DNA of 64,000 nt, taken from positions 832,001 through 896,000 of the forward strand of contig CAVYTU010000015.1 of NCBI GenBank assembly GCA_963771465.1, given 5' to 3'. The stretch comes from an uncultured delta proteobacterium (lineage in GTDB: Bacteria; Desulfobacterota; Binatia; UBA9968). Of the stretch, positions 15,423-23,129 are shown one piece after another. The translations under genes were made by a program, and so were the position numbers. Each line of letters opens with the position of its first letter. The stretch's first letter is position 1. The notes under the pieces are model-generated. The model worked only from the letters and a program-made list of their open reading frames with translations, had not been told where the DNA came from and did not search any database.

Positions 15423-15857
15423 TTAATTCTTCTTCCCCGGCTCGGCCTGATAGCCTTGGTCCTTCCATTTGCTCACCGGGCAAAATGTCGTGCTCTGAAA
15501 ACCCATCTCTTCTGCTAGCTTCGCAGCCTGCGAGCTTTGCGCTCCGGTGCCTCAGGTGAAAACGATATAGGTTTCCTTGGACATTTTCTTGAGATGGCCT
15601 TCAAGTTCTGCCAACGGAATATTGATCGCGCCGGGAATAGTTTCTTTTTCGAAACTGGCCGCAGCGCGCACGTCGATGATCAACATTTTGCCGGCATCGA
15701 GTCGTTTCTTTAATTCCTCGGCCGGTGTTTGCTTGGCGCCAACGGCCCATTTCGTCTGGGGATCGACCGGGTAGCGCGGTTGCGCCTGGGCGGCGAATGA
15801 GGGTTGAGCCCACAATATTAGTGCGGTCAGACTCGCGCCTGCGACAAATGATCTCAC
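15423..15857 (-). CDS. Secreted rhodanese-domain selenoprotein (Sec at TGA 15552-15554), 144 aa
   Basis: GTG start after AAAGGAG; signal peptide; IIDVR..IPGAINIP..IVFT-TGA-GTGAQSSQAAKLAEEMGF..WKDQGY continues in frame for 42 codons to TAA at 15423, completing the rhodanese fold. The TGA is at the catalytic Cys position. Confidence 0.85.
15517..15536 (-). promoter_or_regulatory. Putative bacterial SECIS hairpin for the rhodanese UGA
   Basis: AGCUCGC-AGGCU-GCGAAGCU starting 16 nt after UGA; G-containing apical loop. Confidence 0.7.
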
Positions 15858-15892
15858 AAATACTCCTTTCTCAATTTGACCAAGAAGCTTAC

Positions 15893-16414
15893 TCAATCCC
15901 GATCCGACATTTCAAACGCCAGCGTCGCGTAACGCATAAAAACGCCGCCGCGCGGTTCCGCCAGCGGGCCGTTAGCCACTAAGCAAGCAATCACATGCTT
16001 GGCGCCGGGCTGCGCTTTGGTGCTCACCTCTACTCTCTGTTGTGCGTTGATGCCGACGATCGTCCCTGCCGGCCGTTCGAGCTGGCCATCGACCCAAATC
16101 TCACCGTAGTTATCAACGTTGGTCTCGAACCATACGCGGTAATCGCGCAACGCCAGGCCATTCACCTGCTCGGGCAACTCGACGGTAATCCGATACCAAG
16201 CAAAGGTAAAACCCTTGGAAATACTTCTGCGAATATCGGCACACAGGTTCCATCCCGAATCATCGAAGTCAGCCAAACGGGGCGGCGCTGCCAATAGCTG
16301 TGCGGTGAGACCTTCGTTCGGCTGGCCGGGCACCAATCCGGGACCGATGCGCCACTGTCCTTTCACCTTTCGACAATCCTCCGCGCTATTCAAATCCAAC
16401 GCGACCCTCGGCAT
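15893..16414 (-). CDS. Hypothetical protein with a galactose-binding/GH2 N-terminal-like jelly-roll fold
   Basis: FDDSGW, FAWYRITVELP, VDNYGEIWVDG; start MPRVAL after AAGGAGG. The longer ORF N-terminus merely translates the palindromic repeat. Confidence 0.65.
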   Translation of the reverse strand: MPRVALDLNSAEDCRKVKGQWRIGPGLVPGQPNEGLTAQLLAAPPRLADFDDSGWNLCADIRRSISKGFTFAWYRITVELPEQVNGLALRDYRVWFETNVDNYGEIWVDGQLERPAGTIVGINAQQRVEVSTKAQPGAKHVIACLVANGPLAEPRGGVFMRYATLAFEMSDRD

Positions 16415-16460
16415 GGATGCCTCCTTAGACCCAATTTTTGCGGCAATGCGAAAATTTTTT

Positions 16461-16542
16461 TCACCACGAAGTTCACGAAGGACACGAAGGCTTCGGATGA
16501 CCAATACTCCGAACTTCGTGCTCTTCGTGTGCTTCGTGGTGA
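16461..16542. repeat. Intergenic nested palindrome of CACGAAG/CTTCGTG units
   Basis: TCACCACGAAGTTCACGAAGGACACGAAG ... CTTCGTGCTCTTCGTGTGCTTCGTGGTGA. Confidence 0.8.
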
Positions 16543-16583
16543 TTACGATCTTTGCCTTTTTGCTTGCTGCTATGCCGCGCTCG

Positions 16584-17936
16584 TTAACCTCGAAGAATCT
16601 CCGTCAGCGACCTTACGTTCTCTACTTTTTCCAAGCCTTCGATCTGCGCCAACGCGCGCTCAGCAGCGTCAGCGCTCAAAGTTTCGCGCGCGCACTGGGT
16701 AAACTTACCTCTCAGCTCGTCTTCCGACATGGGAAACTCCGAGCTGCCCCTGGAATGCTGCGCTTCGCGAGTAAGCACCTTGCCGTCCTTCAAGCGCACC
16801 GTGACGCGGCACGGGCGTCCGCCGGGGTCGGTTTTTCTCAGATTATTATCGAGATTCATTTGCACTCTTTCGGCCAACTTCAAAACATTCCGGTCACGCA
16901 CGGCGGCGTCGGTGAATGCATGCAACGACACCTCGCCGTCGATTAGCGCCCGCGCCACCAAGTAGGGCATGCAGAATTTCCCCTGGATGCTTGTTTGCGG
17001 CACTTTGAAAACGATTCGCTCGAAGGTGTGCTTGACGACATCGACGTCGACGCGCTCGACCATCTCCGGCGTCAAGCCGTTTTTAGCTCTGAATTCCAAG
17101 ATGGAATCGATCACCTGGTGGGTAAGTCCACCGCAAGGATAAGGCTTGATACGGATGCCGTCGCTGAGCAAGGCATACGATTGGCCCAACTCTTCGATCG
17201 GCTTCTCGTCGATGGGCGTACCTTGATGCAAAACTTTGTAAAAGCCAAAGCCTGATTCGATCGCTTTGCCGTTGGCGGTGTATCCGCCGGCCGCGAGCTT
17301 GGCGGCGAGCACGCCGTTGCGCGCGCCGAGACCGGCATGCAACGGTTTGGTCATGGTGCCAAAGTTTGCGACGATGCCGCCGGCCATCGATGCCGACATG
17401 CCGAGCGCCATCTCAACCTGCGATGCGTTGAGACCGAGCAATTTCGCGCATGCGGCCGCGGCGCCAAAAACACCTACCGTGCTCGGCGCGTGCCAACCGT
17501 CATGTTCGCTGTCGCGCAGGGAATGCACGATCTTAGCCGTAACCTCGTAACCGGCGGCGTAGGCTTCGATAATCTGCCGGCCGCTGGCGCCGAGCGCTTC
17601 ACCCAGAGCAAAAGTCGCCGGAATGATCGGCGAGGTCGGCTGGCCCATCAATGTGAAGCTGTGATCGAAATCCATCGCGTGGGCCGCCGTGCCATTGGCC
17701 AGCGCGGCGTTGAGCGCGGAAGATTTGAATCCTTGACCGATGACCGTGGTTTCTTCCTTAGCCTGTTCCAGGCGGGCAATCTCGGCGCAAATCTTTGCGT
17801 CCTCTTCTTTGCTGCCGGCAAGGGCCACGCCGAGGCAATCGCGCACCGCTACTTTGGCCGTCTCAATTGCCTTTGGCGGTAGGTTTTCATACTTCGCACT
17901 AACAACGAATTGAGCGATCTTTGCAGTTACGTCCAT
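16584..17936 (-). CDS. MmgE/PrpD family protein
   Basis: DCLGVALAGS, NGTAAHAMDFDH, GTMTKPLHAG, IKPYPC. Confidence 0.92.
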   Translation of the reverse strand: MDVTAKIAQFVVSAKYENLPPKAIETAKVAVRDCLGVALAGSKEEDAKICAEIARLEQAKEETTVIGQGFKSSALNAALANGTAAHAMDFDHSFTLMGQPTSPIIPATFALGEALGASGRQIIEAYAAGYEVTAKIVHSLRDSEHDGWHAPSTVGVFGAAAACAKLLGLNASQVEMALGMSASMAGGIVANFGTMTKPLHAGLGARNGVLAAKLAAGGYTANGKAIESGFGFYKVLHQGTPIDEKPIEELGQSYALLSDGIRIKPYPCGGLTHQVIDSILEFRAKNGLTPEMVERVDVDVVKHTFERIVFKVPQTSIQGKFCMPYLVARALIDGEVSLHAFTDAAVRDRNVLKLAERVQMNLDNNLRKTDPGGRPCRVTVRLKDGKVLTREAQHSRGSSEFPMSEDELRGKFTQCARETLSADAAERALAQIEGLEKVENVRSLTEILRG

Positions 17937-18028
17937 AATTCCTCCTCACTAAATTCGGAATGGCAGATTTAATATCTCATCTGGCAGCGCGCAACATTTG
18001 AAGGCGCGAAATGTGGCGGCACATAGTC

Positions 18029-19114
18029 TCAACCACCAAGAATTTTTCGCGCCTGCTCGATCACTTCAGCCGGTTGACCCAAAACTTCTTTGACCAGCGC
18101 TTCCAAGTCCTCACCCGATGCATATTCCACTTCCATGCGGCTCCGCTTCGCTTCAGCCAAGAGCTCGGGATCTTTGAGGACGTTGCGAAAGCTGTCACGC
18201 AGCAGCTTCACTCGATCGGCCGGCGTCCCTGGCGTCACCATGACGGGCCGGCCGAATTCACCGCCGGAGAGGAGCGCTTGCGCCACTCGCCGCTTGGCGC
18301 TGGGAACCTTGAATTCCTCTAACACCTCGTAGACCGTCGGCGCTTCGGGCGCGCGCGGATCCCGTTTGCGCCCCGACTGAAGTAAATGCAGGTCGAAGCC
18401 CTTCTTATGCCACGAGGTGAACGGCTCTCGGCCAAAGTGCGCCGCCAAGGTATGAGCACGGCAGACTATCTCTCCTTTTTCGACCGCCAGGTCCGCTTCG
18501 GTTCCGCCTGGATATCCGGAAACCGAATTGAACTTTGCGCCCACCGTAAGCTCGAGCACCTTTCCGACGATGTAATCGGAGCTATTGGTTCCCGATCCGC
18601 CGCAACTGGGCGGGGTTTTAGCTTTGACGATGTCACCGATGCTTTTAAACGGTGTATCGGCGCGCATGTAGAACATGATCGAGTCCTGCGATGACGAGCC
18701 GAGCCAATGAAATTTGCGCAGGTCGAATTTCACTTCCTTCCGGCCGATCAGCTGCTCGATGTAGATGCTGTTATTCGGCAGCACGACATGGAGACCGTCC
18801 GGCTTTACAACGCCGTAAACATAATTCATCGCCGTCAGCGATGCCGCGCCTGCCATATTCTGCACAATGACGTTGGGGTTGCCCTCGATATACTTGCCCC
18901 AATAGCGCGCGATCAGCCGACCCCAGACATCGTAGAAGCCACCGGGCGCAGAACCCACAACGAATCTCAGTGTCTTGCCCCTGTAAAAAGGCTCGGCCTG
19001 AGCGCGACCGAGAGAGACGGGAAGAGCGCAAAGTGTCAGAACCCCAACTCCGATAAAAAACGCCAAGGCTTTCGATCGGAACTTCGACATTGTGACAAAC
19101 TTCATCCGAATCAT
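18029..19114 (-). CDS. Tripartite tricarboxylate transporter substrate-binding protein (TctC/Bug family); start uncertain
   Basis: FYRGKTLRFVVGSAPGGFYD, VQNMAGA, GYPGGTEADLAVEKGE, PGTPADRV. Confidence 0.88.
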   Translation of the reverse strand: MIRMKFVTMSKFRSKALAFFIGVGVLTLCALPVSLGRAQAEPFYRGKTLRFVVGSAPGGFYDVWGRLIARYWGKYIEGNPNVIVQNMAGAASLTAMNYVYGVVKPDGLHVVLPNNSIYIEQLIGRKEVKFDLRKFHWLGSSSQDSIMFYMRADTPFKSIGDIVKAKTPPSCGGSGTNSSDYIVGKVLELTVGAKFNSVSGYPGGTEADLAVEKGEIVCRAHTLAAHFGREPFTSWHKKGFDLHLLQSGRKRDPRAPEAPTVYEVLEEFKVPSAKRRVAQALLSGGEFGRPVMVTPGTPADRVKLLRDSFRNVLKDPELLAEAKRSRMEVEYASGEDLEALVKEVLGQPAEVIEQARKILGG

Positions 19115-19214
19115 GTGCGCGAGCCTAGTCGAAGTTCCGCCGATCTGTCAACTTACAATGCGTCGACGCGCGCGGCTTTTCATGCTACCGATGAGCAGTC
19201 ATTCGCCGCTCGCC

Positions 19215-20853
19215 ATGGAAAGGGACACCGCCCAACAATCTCGCGCCAACGTCGCCCGCAACGCCGGTATCGTCAGCTTGGCCGTGATGGCAAGCCGCGT
19301 CCTTGGTCTGGTGCGCGATCAAGTCTTTGCCGCGCTGTTCGGCGCGGGACTGCAATACGACGCCTTTCTCACCGCCTTTCGCGTGCCCAATTTACTGCGC
19401 GATCTGCTCGCCGAAGGCGCGCTTTCGGCCGCATTCGTGACGACCTTCACGCAAACTCTGCAAAGCCAAGGCAAAGAGGCAGCGGTTCGCCTGTCCAACC
19501 GCGTTGCCACACTTATCATTGCGATCATTGCCGCGCTTTCCATCCTGGCTTGGTTTTTCACGCCTGAAATCGTCCGCCTCCTCGCGCCGGGATTTTTTGC
19601 CGTGCCGGGAAAAGCTGAGCTGACCATCGATCTCACCCGCATCATGATGCCATTTCTGTTACTGATCGCGCTTGGCGGCGCAAGCGATGGGCATGCTCAA
19701 TGCGTTTAATATTTACGGCGTGCCGGCGCTCGCTTCGGCATTTTTTAACGTTGGCTCCATCGTCGGTGGATTGCTGCTCGGTTTTCTGCTCGGTCCGACC
19801 GTCGGCCTGAGTGCCATCGCCGGCATGGCTTACGGTGTTGTCATTGGCGGATTTCTGCAGCTCGCTGTGCAATGGCCGAGCCTCAAGCGCTGTGGTGTAA
19901 CCTATCGGCCCGCTATCAGTGTCCGTGACCCTGGCGTGCGCCAAATCATTCTTCTCATGGGCCCGGCGATCATCGGCACCGCCGCCGTGCAGATCAATGT
20001 CTTCATCAATACCAACTTCGCCTCGGCGATCGTCGATCCAAGCACCGGCGCGGTAATCAACGGTCCGGTGTCTTGGTTGAATTATGCGTTCCGCTTTATG
20101 CAGTTTCCCATTGGCGTTTTCGGCGTCGCCGTCGCCACCGCGACCCTGCCGACTCTCTCACGCAGCACGGCGAGTCCTGATTACGTTGATTTTCGCCGAA
20201 CTCTGGTTCACTCGCTGACGCTAGTTTTTCTTTTATGCATACCTTCGGCGGTAGGCCTGGCCGTCTTGGCAAAGCCGATCGTCGCGCTGGTCTTCGAGCA
20301 TGGAGCGTTCAACGCCTTCGACACGGCGCAAACAGCGAAGGCGCTAACGGCTTATGCCATCGGCCTCGCCGGCTACGGCGCGATCAAAGTGCTCTCGCCG
20401 GCATTTTACGCACTCAACGACGCGCGCACGCCGATGCTGATCAGCCTCGCTTCCATCGCCGTCAACTACGTTATGAACTCGCTGTTGGTAAACCGTTTCG
20501 GCCACGTCGGTCTGGCGTTTTCCACATCCGCCGTAGCGTTGGTCAATTTTTTGCTGCTGGCGCTTTTCATGCGCCGGCGCTTGGGGCGTCTCGACGGCCG
20601 CCGCCTCGGCGCTGCGATACTGCGTATCTGCGCCGCGGCGATCCCTGTGGCGATCGTCGCGTGGTTGGCGAACGAGTTCGCCAGCGCTCTACCACTGCAA
20701 GGTATCCTTCGCGAATTCGTCCAAGTGGCCACAGCGATTGTTCTAGCCGCAGTGACATTCTATTTAGGCTGCCGCCTCTTGAAGATTGAAGAATTGAACG
20801 AAGCCATCACCGCGATCGGTGGTCGGCTGCTGCGCTCGCGGCGGAATAAATAG
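19215..20853 (+). CDS. murJ: Lipid II flippase MurJ (MviN); apparent +1 frameshift near 19672
   Basis: SRVLGLVRD, AFRVPNLLRDLLAEGALSAAFV, YAFRFMQFPIGVFG, FEHGAF, FYALNDARTP; two ORFs join at ALLA/AQAMG. Confidence 0.9.
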
Positions 20854-20946
20854 AAGTTTCGCCTTTCATCCACCAACACGCGCGCGAAAACGCCGTTGAC
20901 AACTTTGTTGTCGCCGTTTAACAATTCATTGATCGAAGGAGGCGTC

Positions 20947-21447
20947 ATGCCCAAAGTCACATCCCTCGGACACATGGGTTTTTACGTGCGCGATATCGAG
21001 CGCTCGGTCGCTTTCTACCGCGACATTCTCGGACTCAAAATCAGCGACCGCAGCCCGCGCGGCGCGGTGTTCATGACCGCTCAAGACCGCTTGGCCGAAC
21101 ATCACGAGCTTTATCTGGCGCCGGGGCGAAATGATGACGGCAAGGCGAATGTTTTGCAGCAAATCTCCTTCCGCTGCTCCACCGTCGCCGATGTCAAGGA
21201 GTTCTATCGTATATTTGTCGAAAACAAGGTGCCGATTAACCGCTGCGTCAGCCACGGCAACACCGTCAGCATTTACGCCGAAGATCCCGACGGCAACCCG
21301 GTCGAAGTGTATTGGCCCAACGGCGTCGACGTGCCGCAACCGTTTGGCAAGCCGATGGATTTGTCGAAGAGCGAAAGCGAAATCATGGCGCAGCTCGAAA
21401 ATATCCTTGCGGAATGGCGCGCCAGTCACACGGGAGCGGTAAGTTAG
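20947..21447 (+). CDS. VOC (glyoxalase/extradiol dioxygenase) family protein
   Basis: LGHMGFYVRDIERSVAFYRDILGL, SIYAEDPDGNPVEVY. Confidence 0.9.
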   Translation: MPKVTSLGHMGFYVRDIERSVAFYRDILGLKISDRSPRGAVFMTAQDRLAEHHELYLAPGRNDDGKANVLQQISFRCSTVADVKEFYRIFVENKVPINRCVSHGNTVSIYAEDPDGNPVEVYWPNGVDVPQPFGKPMDLSKSESEIMAQLENILAEWRASHTGAVS

Positions 21448-21477
21448 AGATTCGCGATAGAGACAGGCAACGGCAAT

Positions 21478-22470
21478 ATGCGAGTCGACATTCACAGTCA
21501 CACCGCTCCGGCATCGTATGTTGAAGCGATCCGGCGCGATCCGAAAAGCATGGGCTGCCGCATCGAGAAAGACGCCCAGGGACACGAAGCGATCGTCCAG
21601 GACAACGGCCGCTCGACGCGCTTGCGCACCAATTTGATCGATCCGGAGCTGCGCCTTCGCGAGATGGCCGCCGAGCAAGTGGACGTGATCGTCGAATCGC
21701 TCCTGCCGCCGCTGTTGCCGCTGTGGGCGCCCACCGCCATGGGCGTACGCGTTTGCCAAGTGGTCAACGATGCGGTGGCCGCGGATGCCGCGCGCTTTCC
21801 ACGACGTATGGTGGCCATGGGCATCGTGCCGTTTCAGGATGCCGGCGAGGCGGTGCGCGAGCTCGACCGGGTGGTCAAACAGCACCGTATGAAGTCAGTG
21901 CTCATTCCCGCCAGCCATGCCGGCAAAAATCTCGACGAGCCGGAATTTTTTCCGTTCTTCGAGCGCGCCCAGGAATATGGCGTGCTGGTTTTTATCCATC
22001 CCCACGAAGTCGCCGCCGCCGATCGATTGAAAAAATACGCCCTGGGAAACTTGATCGGCAATCCGTTGGAAACCACCATCGCGCAGGCGAGTCTGATCTT
22101 TGGCGGCGTGCTCGAACGCTTGCCGGGACTGAAGGTTTGTTGCGCTCATGGCGGCGGCTATTCGCCGTGGATTCGCGGCCGCTGGCGCCACGGCCACGGC
22201 AGCCGTCACGAAGCGCGCGACACGATATCCAGACCCGTCTACGAATACTTAGGCCGCCTGTATTTCGACAGCTGCATCTTCGATTCGGCGTCGCTGGAAT
22301 TTCTGATTGAAACCATGGGCGCCGACCATGTTCTCCTCGGCACCGACTATCCCACGCCGATGATGGATGCGGGTCAGGTTGCCGTCATGGACAAGATCAC
22401 CGGACTCAGCGCGGAAGACAAAGAATATGTCATGGGCGGCAATGCCGCGAGACTGCTTGGATTGCAGTAA
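21478..22470 (+). CDS. Amidohydrolase_2 family protein (ACMSD-like decarboxylase/hydratase)
   Basis: DIHSH, FIHP, IGNPLETT, AHGGG, GTDYP. Confidence 0.9.
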   Translation: MRVDIHSHTAPASYVEAIRRDPKSMGCRIEKDAQGHEAIVQDNGRSTRLRTNLIDPELRLREMAAEQVDVIVESLLPPLLPLWAPTAMGVRVCQVVNDAVAADAARFPRRMVAMGIVPFQDAGEAVRELDRVVKQHRMKSVLIPASHAGKNLDEPEFFPFFERAQEYGVLVFIHPHEVAAADRLKKYALGNLIGNPLETTIAQASLIFGGVLERLPGLKVCCAHGGGYSPWIRGRWRHGHGSRHEARDTISRPVYEYLGRLYFDSCIFDSASLEFLIETMGADHVLLGTDYPTPMMDAGQVAVMDKITGLSAEDKEYVMGGNAARLLGLQ

Positions 22471-22559
22471 CCGTGGCGGCTTATTGAGATGACCGAGGCT
22501 AACCAAACGAAATCTCATCTCCCAAGCAAATAACCTCGGAGAAAATCGGAAGGTGTTTG

Positions 22560-23129
22560 ATGCCACATATTCCCTACGTCGATCCTGACAATGTTGCGGA
22601 CCCGGAGATCAAAGGCTATCTAGAGCGCGCGCGCCGCGAAGGCACACCGCGCCCCGAAAGCCAGGCGGTGCGCGCCAACGTGCCCAACGTCATCCGCGCT
22701 TTCTCCCAAGCGTGGGATCTCACCTTTCGTAACGGTGTCGTCGATCACTCTCTCAAAGAGCTTTGCCGGGTTTACGTTTCCAAGTCGATCGATTGCGAAT
22801 ATTGAGGCGTGCAGCGCTCCGTCCAGGCTGGACGGCAAGGACTCACCGAAGCGAAGTACGACGAGCTGCTCAACTTCGCCGACTCAGACAAATTCACCGA
22901 GCGGGAGAAAGTCGCATTGACTTATACCAGCGCCATCGCCTGGAACTCCGAGATCGCCGACGACGCACTGTGGGCAAAATTGCACCAGCACTTTTCGAAT
23001 CCCGAATTGGTCGAGCTCGGCTTTTTCATCGGCCTGACGCTTGGCCAACAGCGCTGGATCAAAACCCTCGGCATCGAGCACGGCGCCGTGCTCGGCGATA
23101 CCACAACCGGTTTGGCGCCGGCGAAGTGA
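22560..23129 (+). CDS. AhpD/CMD-family selenoprotein with CxxU motif (Sec at TGA 22803-22805), 189 aa
   Basis: ORFs 22557-22805 and 22809-23129 are in the same frame, separated only by TGA-GGC. LKELCRVYVSKSIDCEY-U corresponds to the AhpD CxxC, and the C-half FTEREKVAL..LHQHFSNPELVEL completes the fold. Confidence 0.88.
22803..22845 (+). promoter_or_regulatory. Putative bacterial SECIS element for the AhpD-like UGA
   Basis: Upper stem CCGUCC-AGGCU-GGACGG (22819-22835); UGAG can pair with CUCA at 22842-22845. Confidence 0.72.

Follow-up and report, generated by a model that had tools for sequence, protein, structure and literature searches.

The bacterial SECIS (bSECIS) model given in the Fig. 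[quoted passage not shown] According to the same legend, the loop has G in its first two positions and follows the pattern N1-G-[G|U]-N-N2, in which N1 and N2 pair. This model was applied in PMC1088965. Two described selenoprotein families are closest to the genes considered here, namely the CMD/AhpD-like proteins with a CxxU motif (Sargasso Sea families, PMC1088965; a table in PMC13188914) and the UxxG rhodanese-related sulfurtransferases (PMC1088965; forms 2 and 4 of PMC13188914). As to the RNA element, the TGA of Escherichia coli fdhF (NC_000913.3) is followed by 16 nt and then by CAGGTCTG.

The window, by which we mean the whole 64,000-nt stretch of DNA that was analysed, contains two unrelated genes on opposite strands, each with an in-frame TGA followed by a hairpin with the same loop. 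We estimate a probability of about 0.93 that both are selenoprotein genes, each UGA being served by an ordinary bacterial SECIS, and that AGGCU is one variant of the published loop consensus. The features are listed below, with the stop codon included in the end of each gene.

22560..23129, plus strand: predicted CMD/AhpD-like selenoprotein gene, PF02627 across the TGA
22803-22805, plus strand: predicted Sec codon UGA of the AhpD-like gene, then GGC; TGA kept in homologous loci
22819..22835, plus strand: predicted AhpD-like SECIS hairpin CCGUCC-AGGCU-GGACGG, 6 pairs
15423..15857, minus strand: predicted small rhodanese-domain selenoprotein gene, PF00581 across the TGA
15554-15552, minus strand: predicted Sec codon UGA of the rhodanese gene, then GGC; TGA kept in orthologues
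15517..15536, minus strand: predicted rhodanese SECIS hairpin AGCUCGC-AGGCU-GCGAAGCU, 7 pairs, one bulged A

With its TGA read as Sec (U), the plus-strand gene forms an ORF at 22557-23129, and the ATG at 22560 is preceded by GGAAGG. Its predicted product belongs to the CMD/AhpD-like proteins and carries a CxxU redox motif. PF02627 spans the TGA (residues 44–124, E 9e-7) and scores 29.2 bits, above the gathering cut-off of 23. The motif reads C-E-Y-U and occupies the CxxC site, its first Cys being invariant. The TGA is kept in 80/80 loci from public genomes, and five homologues at 53–58% identity carry TGC or TGT at the same position. The protein thus resembles the CMD/AhpD-like CxxU selenoproteins, as far as the two sources describe them, in having PF02627, Sec as the second residue of a CxxC-type motif, and Cys homologues. 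Matches to curated NCBIfam models stay below their cut-offs (59.2 vs 310 bits for NF053654, a YciW-related (seleno)protein, and 26.4 vs 81.8 bits for TIGR01926).

The minus-strand gene, read in the same way, forms an ORF at 15423-15896. The likely start is the GTG at 15857-15855, with AAGGAG 5 nt upstream; both this start and the plus-strand one were read from the sequence. Its product would be a small, single-domain rhodanese of the UxxG form, with Sec at the position of the catalytic Cys; a signal peptide is probably present, and the protein is probably exported. PF00581 matches residues 59–135 and spans the TGA (E 5e-18, 65.8 vs a cut-off of 22.2 bits), and within the CxxGxR[ST] loop U occupies the position of the catalytic Cys. 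Among 13 orthologous loci from related genomes, 12 have TGA and one has CGA at this codon; four distant homologues (L185-L188) have TGT or TGC. In two of these (L185 and L186) the active-site loop is C-H-T-G-E-R-S, whose Cys aligns with the U of U-G-T-G-A-Q-S in the window. PF00581, UxxG and the replacement of Cys by Sec at the catalytic position are likewise features of the UxxG sulfurtransferase selenoproteins, within what the cited forms describe; the loop of the window rhodanese differs from that of the Cys homologues in having Gln instead of Arg. Among curated NCBIfam models, no selenoprotein model is reached at its cut-off (34 vs 115 bits for NF041203, rhodanese_LYCAU (seleno)protein), and the best match is PspE, at 44 vs 102 bits.

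Both UGAs are followed by GGC and then, at the tip of a hairpin, by CAGGCTG, which reads CAG GCT (Gln-Ala) in both genes. The preliminary description had reported this arrangement, with spacings of 18 and 21 nt and differing stems, and our coordinates confirm it. In the AhpD-like gene, 18 nt separate the TGA from the heptamer at 22824-22830, and the loop starts 19 nt after the UGA. In the rhodanese gene, the interval is 21 nt, the heptamer lies at 15530-15524, the loop starts 22 nt after the UGA, and the stem AGCUCGC / GCG-A-AGCU contains the bulged A. Both hairpins fall wholly inside the bSECIS model as the legend gives it. The 5-nt loop AGGCU (GGC if A-U closes) fits the published pattern as A-GG-C-U, the stems are 6 and 7 pairs long, the first loop base lies at 19 and 22 nt, and the UGAs align with Cys of homologues in a genome that has selA, selB, selD and tRNA-Sec. 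The exposed GGC sets these loops apart from the GU-containing ones that are commoner in this genome. The 27-nt stretches fold at −10.3 kcal/mol (AhpD-like, z −0.93) and −8.7 kcal/mol (rhodanese, z −0.45), within the model's threshold, although neither beats shuffled sequence, as 34/200 and 72/200 shuffles, respectively, fold equally well. For the rhodanese, the minimum-energy folds of 45- and 60-nt stretches choose other pairings. No Rfam family reaches its gathering score in the window, and around both hairpins a search with E up to 10 yields chance-level, unrelated matches only.

The closest described element is that of E. coli fdhF, whose apex GCAGGUCUGC compares with GCAGGCUGC in the rhodanese and CCAGGCUGG in the AhpD-like gene. 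All three expose GG at the tip, about 19–24 nt after the UGA. Compared with fdhF, the window loops are 1 nt shorter, have GGC for GGU, and place the first G at 21 and 24 nt after the UGA instead of 19. For E. coli SelB, a bulged U and the U that follows GG are of importance.

Conservation indicates that the hairpins are under selection. In the AhpD-like stem, 3/7 pairs show both-sided changes (13 cells), and 0/500 shuffles match the covariation score. Third-codon-position entropy drops to 0.23 in this hairpin from 1.28 in the flanks, and a comparable hairpin is absent from 4/5 Cys homologues. The loop is CAGGCTG in 64/80 loci; the variants are CAGGCCG (11), CAGGGTG (3), CAGGGCG (1) and CGGGCCG (1), so that GG is always kept. 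A 48%-identical homologue (L081) again has TGA, 18 nt and CAGGCTG, placed on the different stem CUGCA/UGCAG. The rhodanese hairpin is identical in the window copy and its 13 orthologues (rows 1–14 of alignment A2), with an entropy of 0.10 vs 0.92 in the flanks; covariation within the genus was looked for and none was seen, because the hairpin is invariant there. In L183, titled Vicinamibacterales, the loop is kept and the lower stem is changed to UCUUCGC/GCGAAGA.

The genome encodes the machinery for Sec. selA, selB and selD are adjacent at C14:197319-201637, all over curated cut-offs, the selD gene itself contains a TGA, and tRNA-Sec is located on C13. The suggestion of a large selenoproteome in this organism holds, as the scan accepted at least 30 selenoprotein genes, a hand-picked lower bound. 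G-loop hairpins with a score >=15 follow 24/29 accepted Sec-TGAs, a partly circular figure because some candidates had been chosen from a ranking by hairpin score before Pfam confirmation, compared with 92/1354 true stops and 601/6000 out-of-frame TGAs. Several candidates were left out of the count. L043 (C14:609948-610862), with a UxxC-like motif and an AGGCA-loop hairpin, is no selenoprotein gene, as its relatives' matches end at residue 289-291, with TAA there in two. Eight hand-picked candidates (L041, L042, L045, L046 and L047-L050) match no Pfam family. The paralogues of the Amdase-like L044 show W, L or other residues at the TGA, never Cys, and L051 has a penicillin-amidase N-terminus across its TGA. 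A tblastn search for Sec/Cys paralogues within the genome (X at the TGA, 4333 queries) was too noisy, because paralogous families also matched in antisense and out of frame, and was therefore unused for the counts. No paper naming the lineage is among the literature matches listed for Binatia or Binatota with selenoproteins, and the review PMC13188914 mentions Binatia 0 times. Both genes may already be catalogued in BSepDB (PMC13326102) or deep-Sep (PMC12013277).

Taken alone, neither the heptamer count in the window nor the hairpin stability is more than chance: CAGGCTG occurs 8 times compared with 6.4 expected, and 28/100 shuffles reach 8. The combination of an in-frame TGA, coding sequence on both sides and a CAGGCTG hairpin is beyond chance. 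The whole 6.9 Mb genome has 50 copies of CAGGCTG with >=3 further stem pairs. Of these, only the two in the window genes were judged to have an in-frame TGA 10–33 nt upstream whose flanks both show clear coding potential. Two more rows (C8, C13) score weakly positive on either side of the TGA. The 204 genome matches to TGA-N(12-30)-CAGGCTG include no further convincing selenoprotein gene.

The TGAs might instead arise from sequencing error, mark lesions in pseudogenes or be real stops between two short genes, and MurJ nearby, split into 19092-19709 and 19672-20853, is probably a broken gene. This reading is extremely improbable. One domain runs across each TGA, coding potential is positive on either side of both, the hairpins are selected, and it is refuted by the conservation of TGA in 80/80 and 12/13 independent assemblies. 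A genome-wide reassignment of TGA to Trp or Gly (codes 4 or 25), for which no support was found, has a vanishingly small chance, as 1525 long, strongly coding frames terminate in TGA, the aligned residue of homologues is Cys, and tRNA-Sec and SelB are present. The Sec machinery, the Cys-aligned and conserved TGAs, the freezing of synonymous sites and the AhpD-like covariation together identify the two hairpins as SECIS elements of the SelB type that follow genuine Sec codons, and the earlier view that this is an element of the SelB-recognised type, not sequencing error, is borne out. The preliminary description had gone further and proposed that CAGGCUG with TGA-GGC is a lineage-specific consensus, which the organism's SelB would require. 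The same heptamer on unlike stems in two unrelated genes speaks for it, as does the AGGY-loop hairpin, found after 3/29 Sec-TGAs, two of the three being the genes that had suggested the motif, compared with 3/1354 true stops and 104/50194 out-of-frame TGAs. Against it, CAGGCUG occurs in only 2/30 accepted selenoprotein genes, leaving 28/30 without the motif. Known selenoprotein genes lacking it had been named beforehand as the test that could refute the proposal, and in this genome the fdhA-like gene has the loop GGUUU and selD has GUU; further loops include GGC, GUG, GUC, AGUU and AGGUC, among others. Moreover, the general pattern in the PMC13188914 legend already includes the motif, E. coli fdhF carries GCAGGUCUGC where the rhodanese carries GCAGGCUGC, and orthologues at 72–84% identity with the motif are titled Rokubacteria, Actinomycetota, Burkholderiales and others. 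TGA-GGC also falls away as part of an RNA signature, since the Gly codon varies in its third base among the 80 loci (C 43, G 31, A 5, T 1). A lineage-specific consensus is therefore very improbable.

A further possibility is that the fdhF-like apex C-AGG(C/U)(U/C)-G forms a distinct high-affinity class of SECIS, so that the identity of the two loops is no coincidence, and that it works with many SelBs, aiding gene movement between phyla. The constancy of the loop in most AhpD-like loci and in all rhodanese rows, the GG common to all variants, the survival of the loop through stem replacement in L081 and L183, and an apex almost equal to that of fdhF are consistent with it. In addition, records whose titles name several phyla share 72–93% identity in the AhpD-like protein. 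However, loop positions 4 and 5 vary, and the same SelB serves mostly other loops in this genome. By a rough count of about 190 fitting heptamers, about 16 elements and about 120 pairs, one chance identity would be likely. The titles of metagenome-assembled genomes are also unreliable: L101 (Chloroflexota) and L102 (Verrucomicrobiia) are the same contigs as G006 and G025, which the genus grouping of genomes assigns to the window's own genus. A spread at the phylum level is not established from titles that conflict in this way with the genus grouping. We regard such a class as unlikely. The related proposal that C-AGG(C/U)N-G is a portable, broadly recognised loop class, that the AhpD-like gene spread among soil and groundwater phyla with its element frozen since many SelBs accept it, and that the shared loop reflects selection for the class instead of coincidence, is quite doubtful. 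Under the preferred reading of two ordinary bacterial SECIS elements, the shared loop is a real but ordinary finding, because it is one variant of an already published consensus.

In the proposed mechanism, each SECIS would be a short, G+C-rich hairpin embedded in the gene's coding sequence, with GG exposed in a small apical loop about 20–24 nt past the UGA. By analogy with the E. coli paradigm, we infer SelB binding and actual Sec insertion at both sites: SelB with GTP and Sec-tRNA(Sec) would bind the loop via its C-terminal domain and bring Sec to the ribosomal A site on arrival of the UGA, in competition with RF2. The C-AGGCU-G apex represents one of the forms that the general bacterial SECIS loop may take (N1-G-G-N-N2, where N1 pairs with N2); it is under strong selection within each gene family and is neither a genome consensus nor special to the lineage, and the GGC of TGA-GGC is simply the Gly codon after Sec.

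Knowledge of Sec decoding is unchanged by these genes. The published bacterial model accommodates the hairpins, and both proteins belong to families already listed as containing selenoproteins. For annotation, gene callers that treat TGA as a stop would split both genes, plus about 28 others in the genome, and recognising the Sec genes restores a set of redox and sulfur-transfer proteins in an uncultured lineage. The records nearest to this lineage bear the titles Candidatus Binatia or delta proteobacterium, and the bacterium is of soil type. The sequence comparisons provide a clean natural case of an RNA element shaping its host peptide: Sec forms have S-V-Q-A-G-R, whereas Cys forms have other residues.

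Both window genes carry an in-frame TGA inside a conserved domain, followed by a hairpin with the apex CAGGCUG:

22557 to 23129, plus strand: AhpD-like reading frame with the TGA read through (ATG at 22560)
22803-22805, plus strand: in-frame TGA of the AhpD-like gene, GGC next
22824-22830, plus strand: CAGGCTG, 18 nt between TGA and heptamer
15896 to 15423, minus strand: rhodanese reading frame with the TGA read through
15554-15552, minus strand: in-frame TGA of the rhodanese gene, GGC next
15530-15524, minus strand: CAGGCTG, 21 nt between TGA and heptamer

In each gene the heptamer is read as codons CAG GCT and forms a hairpin tip, CCGUCC-AGGCU-GGACGG in the AhpD-like gene and AGCUCGC-AGGCU-GCG(A)AGCU in the rhodanese gene. 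With TGA translated as U, the products contain a PF02627 carboxymuconolactone-decarboxylase/AhpD domain (E 9e-7, residues 44-124) and a PF00581 rhodanese domain (E 5e-18, residues 59-135), both with the TGA inside the domain. U is the second of the redox pair in the AhpD-like motif C-E-Y-U and the first residue of the rhodanese loop U-G-T-G-A-Q-S. The same positions hold TGC/TGT in five AhpD-like homologues of 53-58% identity and in distant rhodanese homologues, where Cys heads the catalytic loop C-H-T-G-E-R-S. Neither protein belongs to a curated NCBIfam family, the best matches being YciW-related (seleno)protein (59 versus 310 bits) and PspE (44 versus 102 bits). AhpD-like, CMD-domain (CxxU) and rhodanese-related selenoproteins are known from the Sargasso Sea (PMC1088965, in excerpt), and CxxU and UxxG forms of these families are tabulated in excerpts of a review (PMC13188914).

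The window's own genome encodes selA, selB and selD side by side (C14:197319-201637; 614, 359 and 376 bits, all over curated cut-offs), selD containing a TGA of its own, and ARAGORN places a tRNA-Sec on contig C13. Elsewhere TGA is a normal stop, terminating 1525 long, strongly coding frames. We infer that Sec is inserted, and SelB bound, at the two window genes.

The AhpD-like TGA is present in 80 of 80 loci returned from public genomes and in 22 loci of the window's genus (leaving aside the G005 row), most of which are from the same assemblies as among the 80. Mean third-codon-position entropy is 0.23 in the hairpin versus 1.28 in the flanks. Three of the seven stem pairs are altered on both sides (13 cells: C-G to U-A in nine rows, U-A to C-G in three, C-G to A-U in one), and the covariation score was reached by 0 of 500 shuffles. 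The apices of the 80 loci are CAGGCTG (64), CAGGCCG (11), CAGGGTG (3), CAGGGCG (1) and CGGGCCG (1), so that GG is fixed and loop positions 4-5 are free; the A-U closure of the loop is dispensable. Among the five Cys homologues, four lack a comparable hairpin, and the hairpin of the fifth, whose loop is 8 nt long, is unrelated.

For the rhodanese gene, TGA is found in 12 of 13 orthologous loci. The hairpin is identical in all 14 aligned rows, with the preceding 15 nt and the following codons variable (entropy 0.10 in the hairpin versus 0.92 in the flanks). A Sec homologue at 42% identity (L096) has a different hairpin. In one locus (L090:1810-1884; also L179) the Sec position reads CGA (Arg) and the SECIS hairpin is intact, which could reflect recent loss or an assembly error. 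For the window gene the likelier start is a GTG codon (15857-15855), preceded by AAGGAG. Directly upstream, a 203-aa reading frame (15893-16504, minus strand) overlaps the annotated TTG start; a Pfam search of it gave no match.

Taken singly, heptamer count and hairpin stabilities are unremarkable: the window contains 8 copies of CAGGCTG versus 6.4 expected, and the isolated hairpins are no better than shuffles (AhpD-like, -10.3 kcal/mol, z -0.93; rhodanese, -8.7 kcal/mol, z -0.45), longer stretches around the rhodanese hairpin adopting other folds. [quoted passage not shown] The A-GG-C-U loop, at 19 nt (AhpD-like) and 22 nt (rhodanese), fits this excerpted model exactly. The loop also resembles the apex of E. 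coli fdhF (NC_000913.3), in which TGA is followed after 16 nt by CAGGTCTG, with the apex GCAGGUCUGC.

The preliminary description was accurate in every sequence detail (TGA-GGC, spacings of 18 and 21 nt, CAGGCTG at the hairpin apex, differing stems), and had proposed a lineage-specific SECIS consensus. CAGGCUG is not the SECIS consensus of this organism: two known selenoprotein genes of the same genome lack it, the fdhA-like gene having the loop GGUUU and selD GUU. This is the outcome that the preliminary description had itself named as refuting the idea. GGC is the best hairpin loop in six genes, four GRDB paralogues and the two window genes; other best loops include GUG, GUU, GGUUU, GUC, AGUU and AGGUC. 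Counted from the UGA, the first G of the loop comes 17-27 nt downstream in 27 of 28 scored hairpins and 34 nt downstream in one. G-loop hairpins (score >=15) are strongly enriched after Sec-TGAs (24/29, versus 92/1354 true stops and 601/6000 out-of-frame TGAs), a comparison made partly circular by the way candidates were chosen. An AGGY-loop hairpin follows 3/29 Sec-TGAs versus 3/1354 true stops and 104/50194 out-of-frame TGAs; with the window genes left out, the first figure is 1/27. Nor does TGA-GGC hold as part of the signal, since the third base of the Gly codon varies in the AhpD-like family (GGC 43, GGG 31, GGA 5, GGT 1) and the 14 rhodanese loci even include AGT and CAG (one each, beside GGC 7 and GGG 5). 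The G-loop search fits no hairpin in GRDA (C12:167439-167891) and an AhpC-TSA gene (C11:241794-242408), with scores of 2 and 6; GRDA has a possible hairpin <10 nt from the UGA.

The identical apices might still mark a preferred loop class. Within each family the loop is tightly conserved, even when the stem is replaced: in L081, a 48%-identical AhpD-like homologue from a different family within the order, CAGGCTG again follows the TGA after 18 nt but caps another stem, and rhodanese locus L183 retains UCGC-AGGCU-GCGA with an altered lower stem. The likeness to fdhF points the same way. However, by rough estimate ~190 heptamers fit the pattern and closing pair, and ~16 such elements in the genome give ~120 pairs, so one chance identity would not be surprising, and we consider a preferred loop class unlikely.

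The large selenoproteome hinted at earlier was borne out, with at least 30 genes. The scan sought in-frame TGAs flanked both 5' and 3' by sequence with coding potential. At least 12 open codons lay on each side of 85,664 TGAs; 301 of these passed the hexamer score (best frame, both sides), and 39, selected by hand for a redox motif or for their hairpin score, were scanned. Twenty-seven were accepted on a Pfam domain across the TGA (20/20, then 7/10); a PrdB-like candidate was accepted via NCBIfam, and the two window genes bring the total to 30, a lower bound from a sample biased by hand-picking. These are GRDB (4), GRDA (1), PrdB-like (1), UGSC (3), rhodanese (5), CMD (3), AhpC-TSA/redoxin (8), and DsbA, OsmC, MetE-like, FdhA-like and SelD (1 each). 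The record-holding selenoproteomes cited in PMC13188914 (in excerpt) have 57 and 63 genes, which makes 30 large but not exceptional. The last nine candidates gave a spanning match in two and no match in the Pfam scan in seven. The two, not counted, have the TGA inside an Amdase-like domain (L044, C15:912812-913078; paralogues have W, L and others there, never Cys) and a penicillin-amidase domain (L051, C9:2793-3500); pseudogene, error and Sec are all candidate explanations.

Sec codons occur in four GrdB-family, one GrdA and one PrdB-like gene (C17:161494-162789, C15:777163-778182, C11:115161-116447, C13:124779-126080, C12:167439-167891 (GRDA) and C15:394271-395059). The MetE-like gene L030 (C19:30453-31553, PF01717) has its TGA in H-L-U-R-G-N. 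Among the matches listed, and leaving aside G005, the TGA recurs in 14 of 17 relatives of >=58% identity, including three genomes of another family; it is in none of the listed paralogues of <=45% identity. Neither PF01717 nor 'methionine synthase' appears in the excerpted review PMC13188914, and L030 may represent an undescribed selenoprotein family. The base after the 30 accepted Sec-UGAs (including C15:394739) is C in 10, G in 12, A in 8 and T in none, versus T after 363 of 1354 true TGA stops (27%), a possible sign that strong termination contexts are avoided.

The neighbours of the window genes (HpaB-like, MmgE/PrpD, TctC, MurJ, glyoxalase, amidohydrolase, cyclase) do not form a selenoprotein operon. 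In four genomes of the genus (G003, G004, G014, G020) the two genes nevertheless share a contig, separated by 5.8-6.3 kb. Records titled Chloroflexota (L101) and Verrucomicrobiia (L102) are contigs grouped in the window's own genus (G006, G025), so the depositor labels of these MAGs are unreliable as taxonomy. MurJ (19092-20853, plus strand) is split by a frameshift or assembly error into overlapping frames, 19092-19709 and 19672-20853, matching profile positions 1-113 and 113-437.
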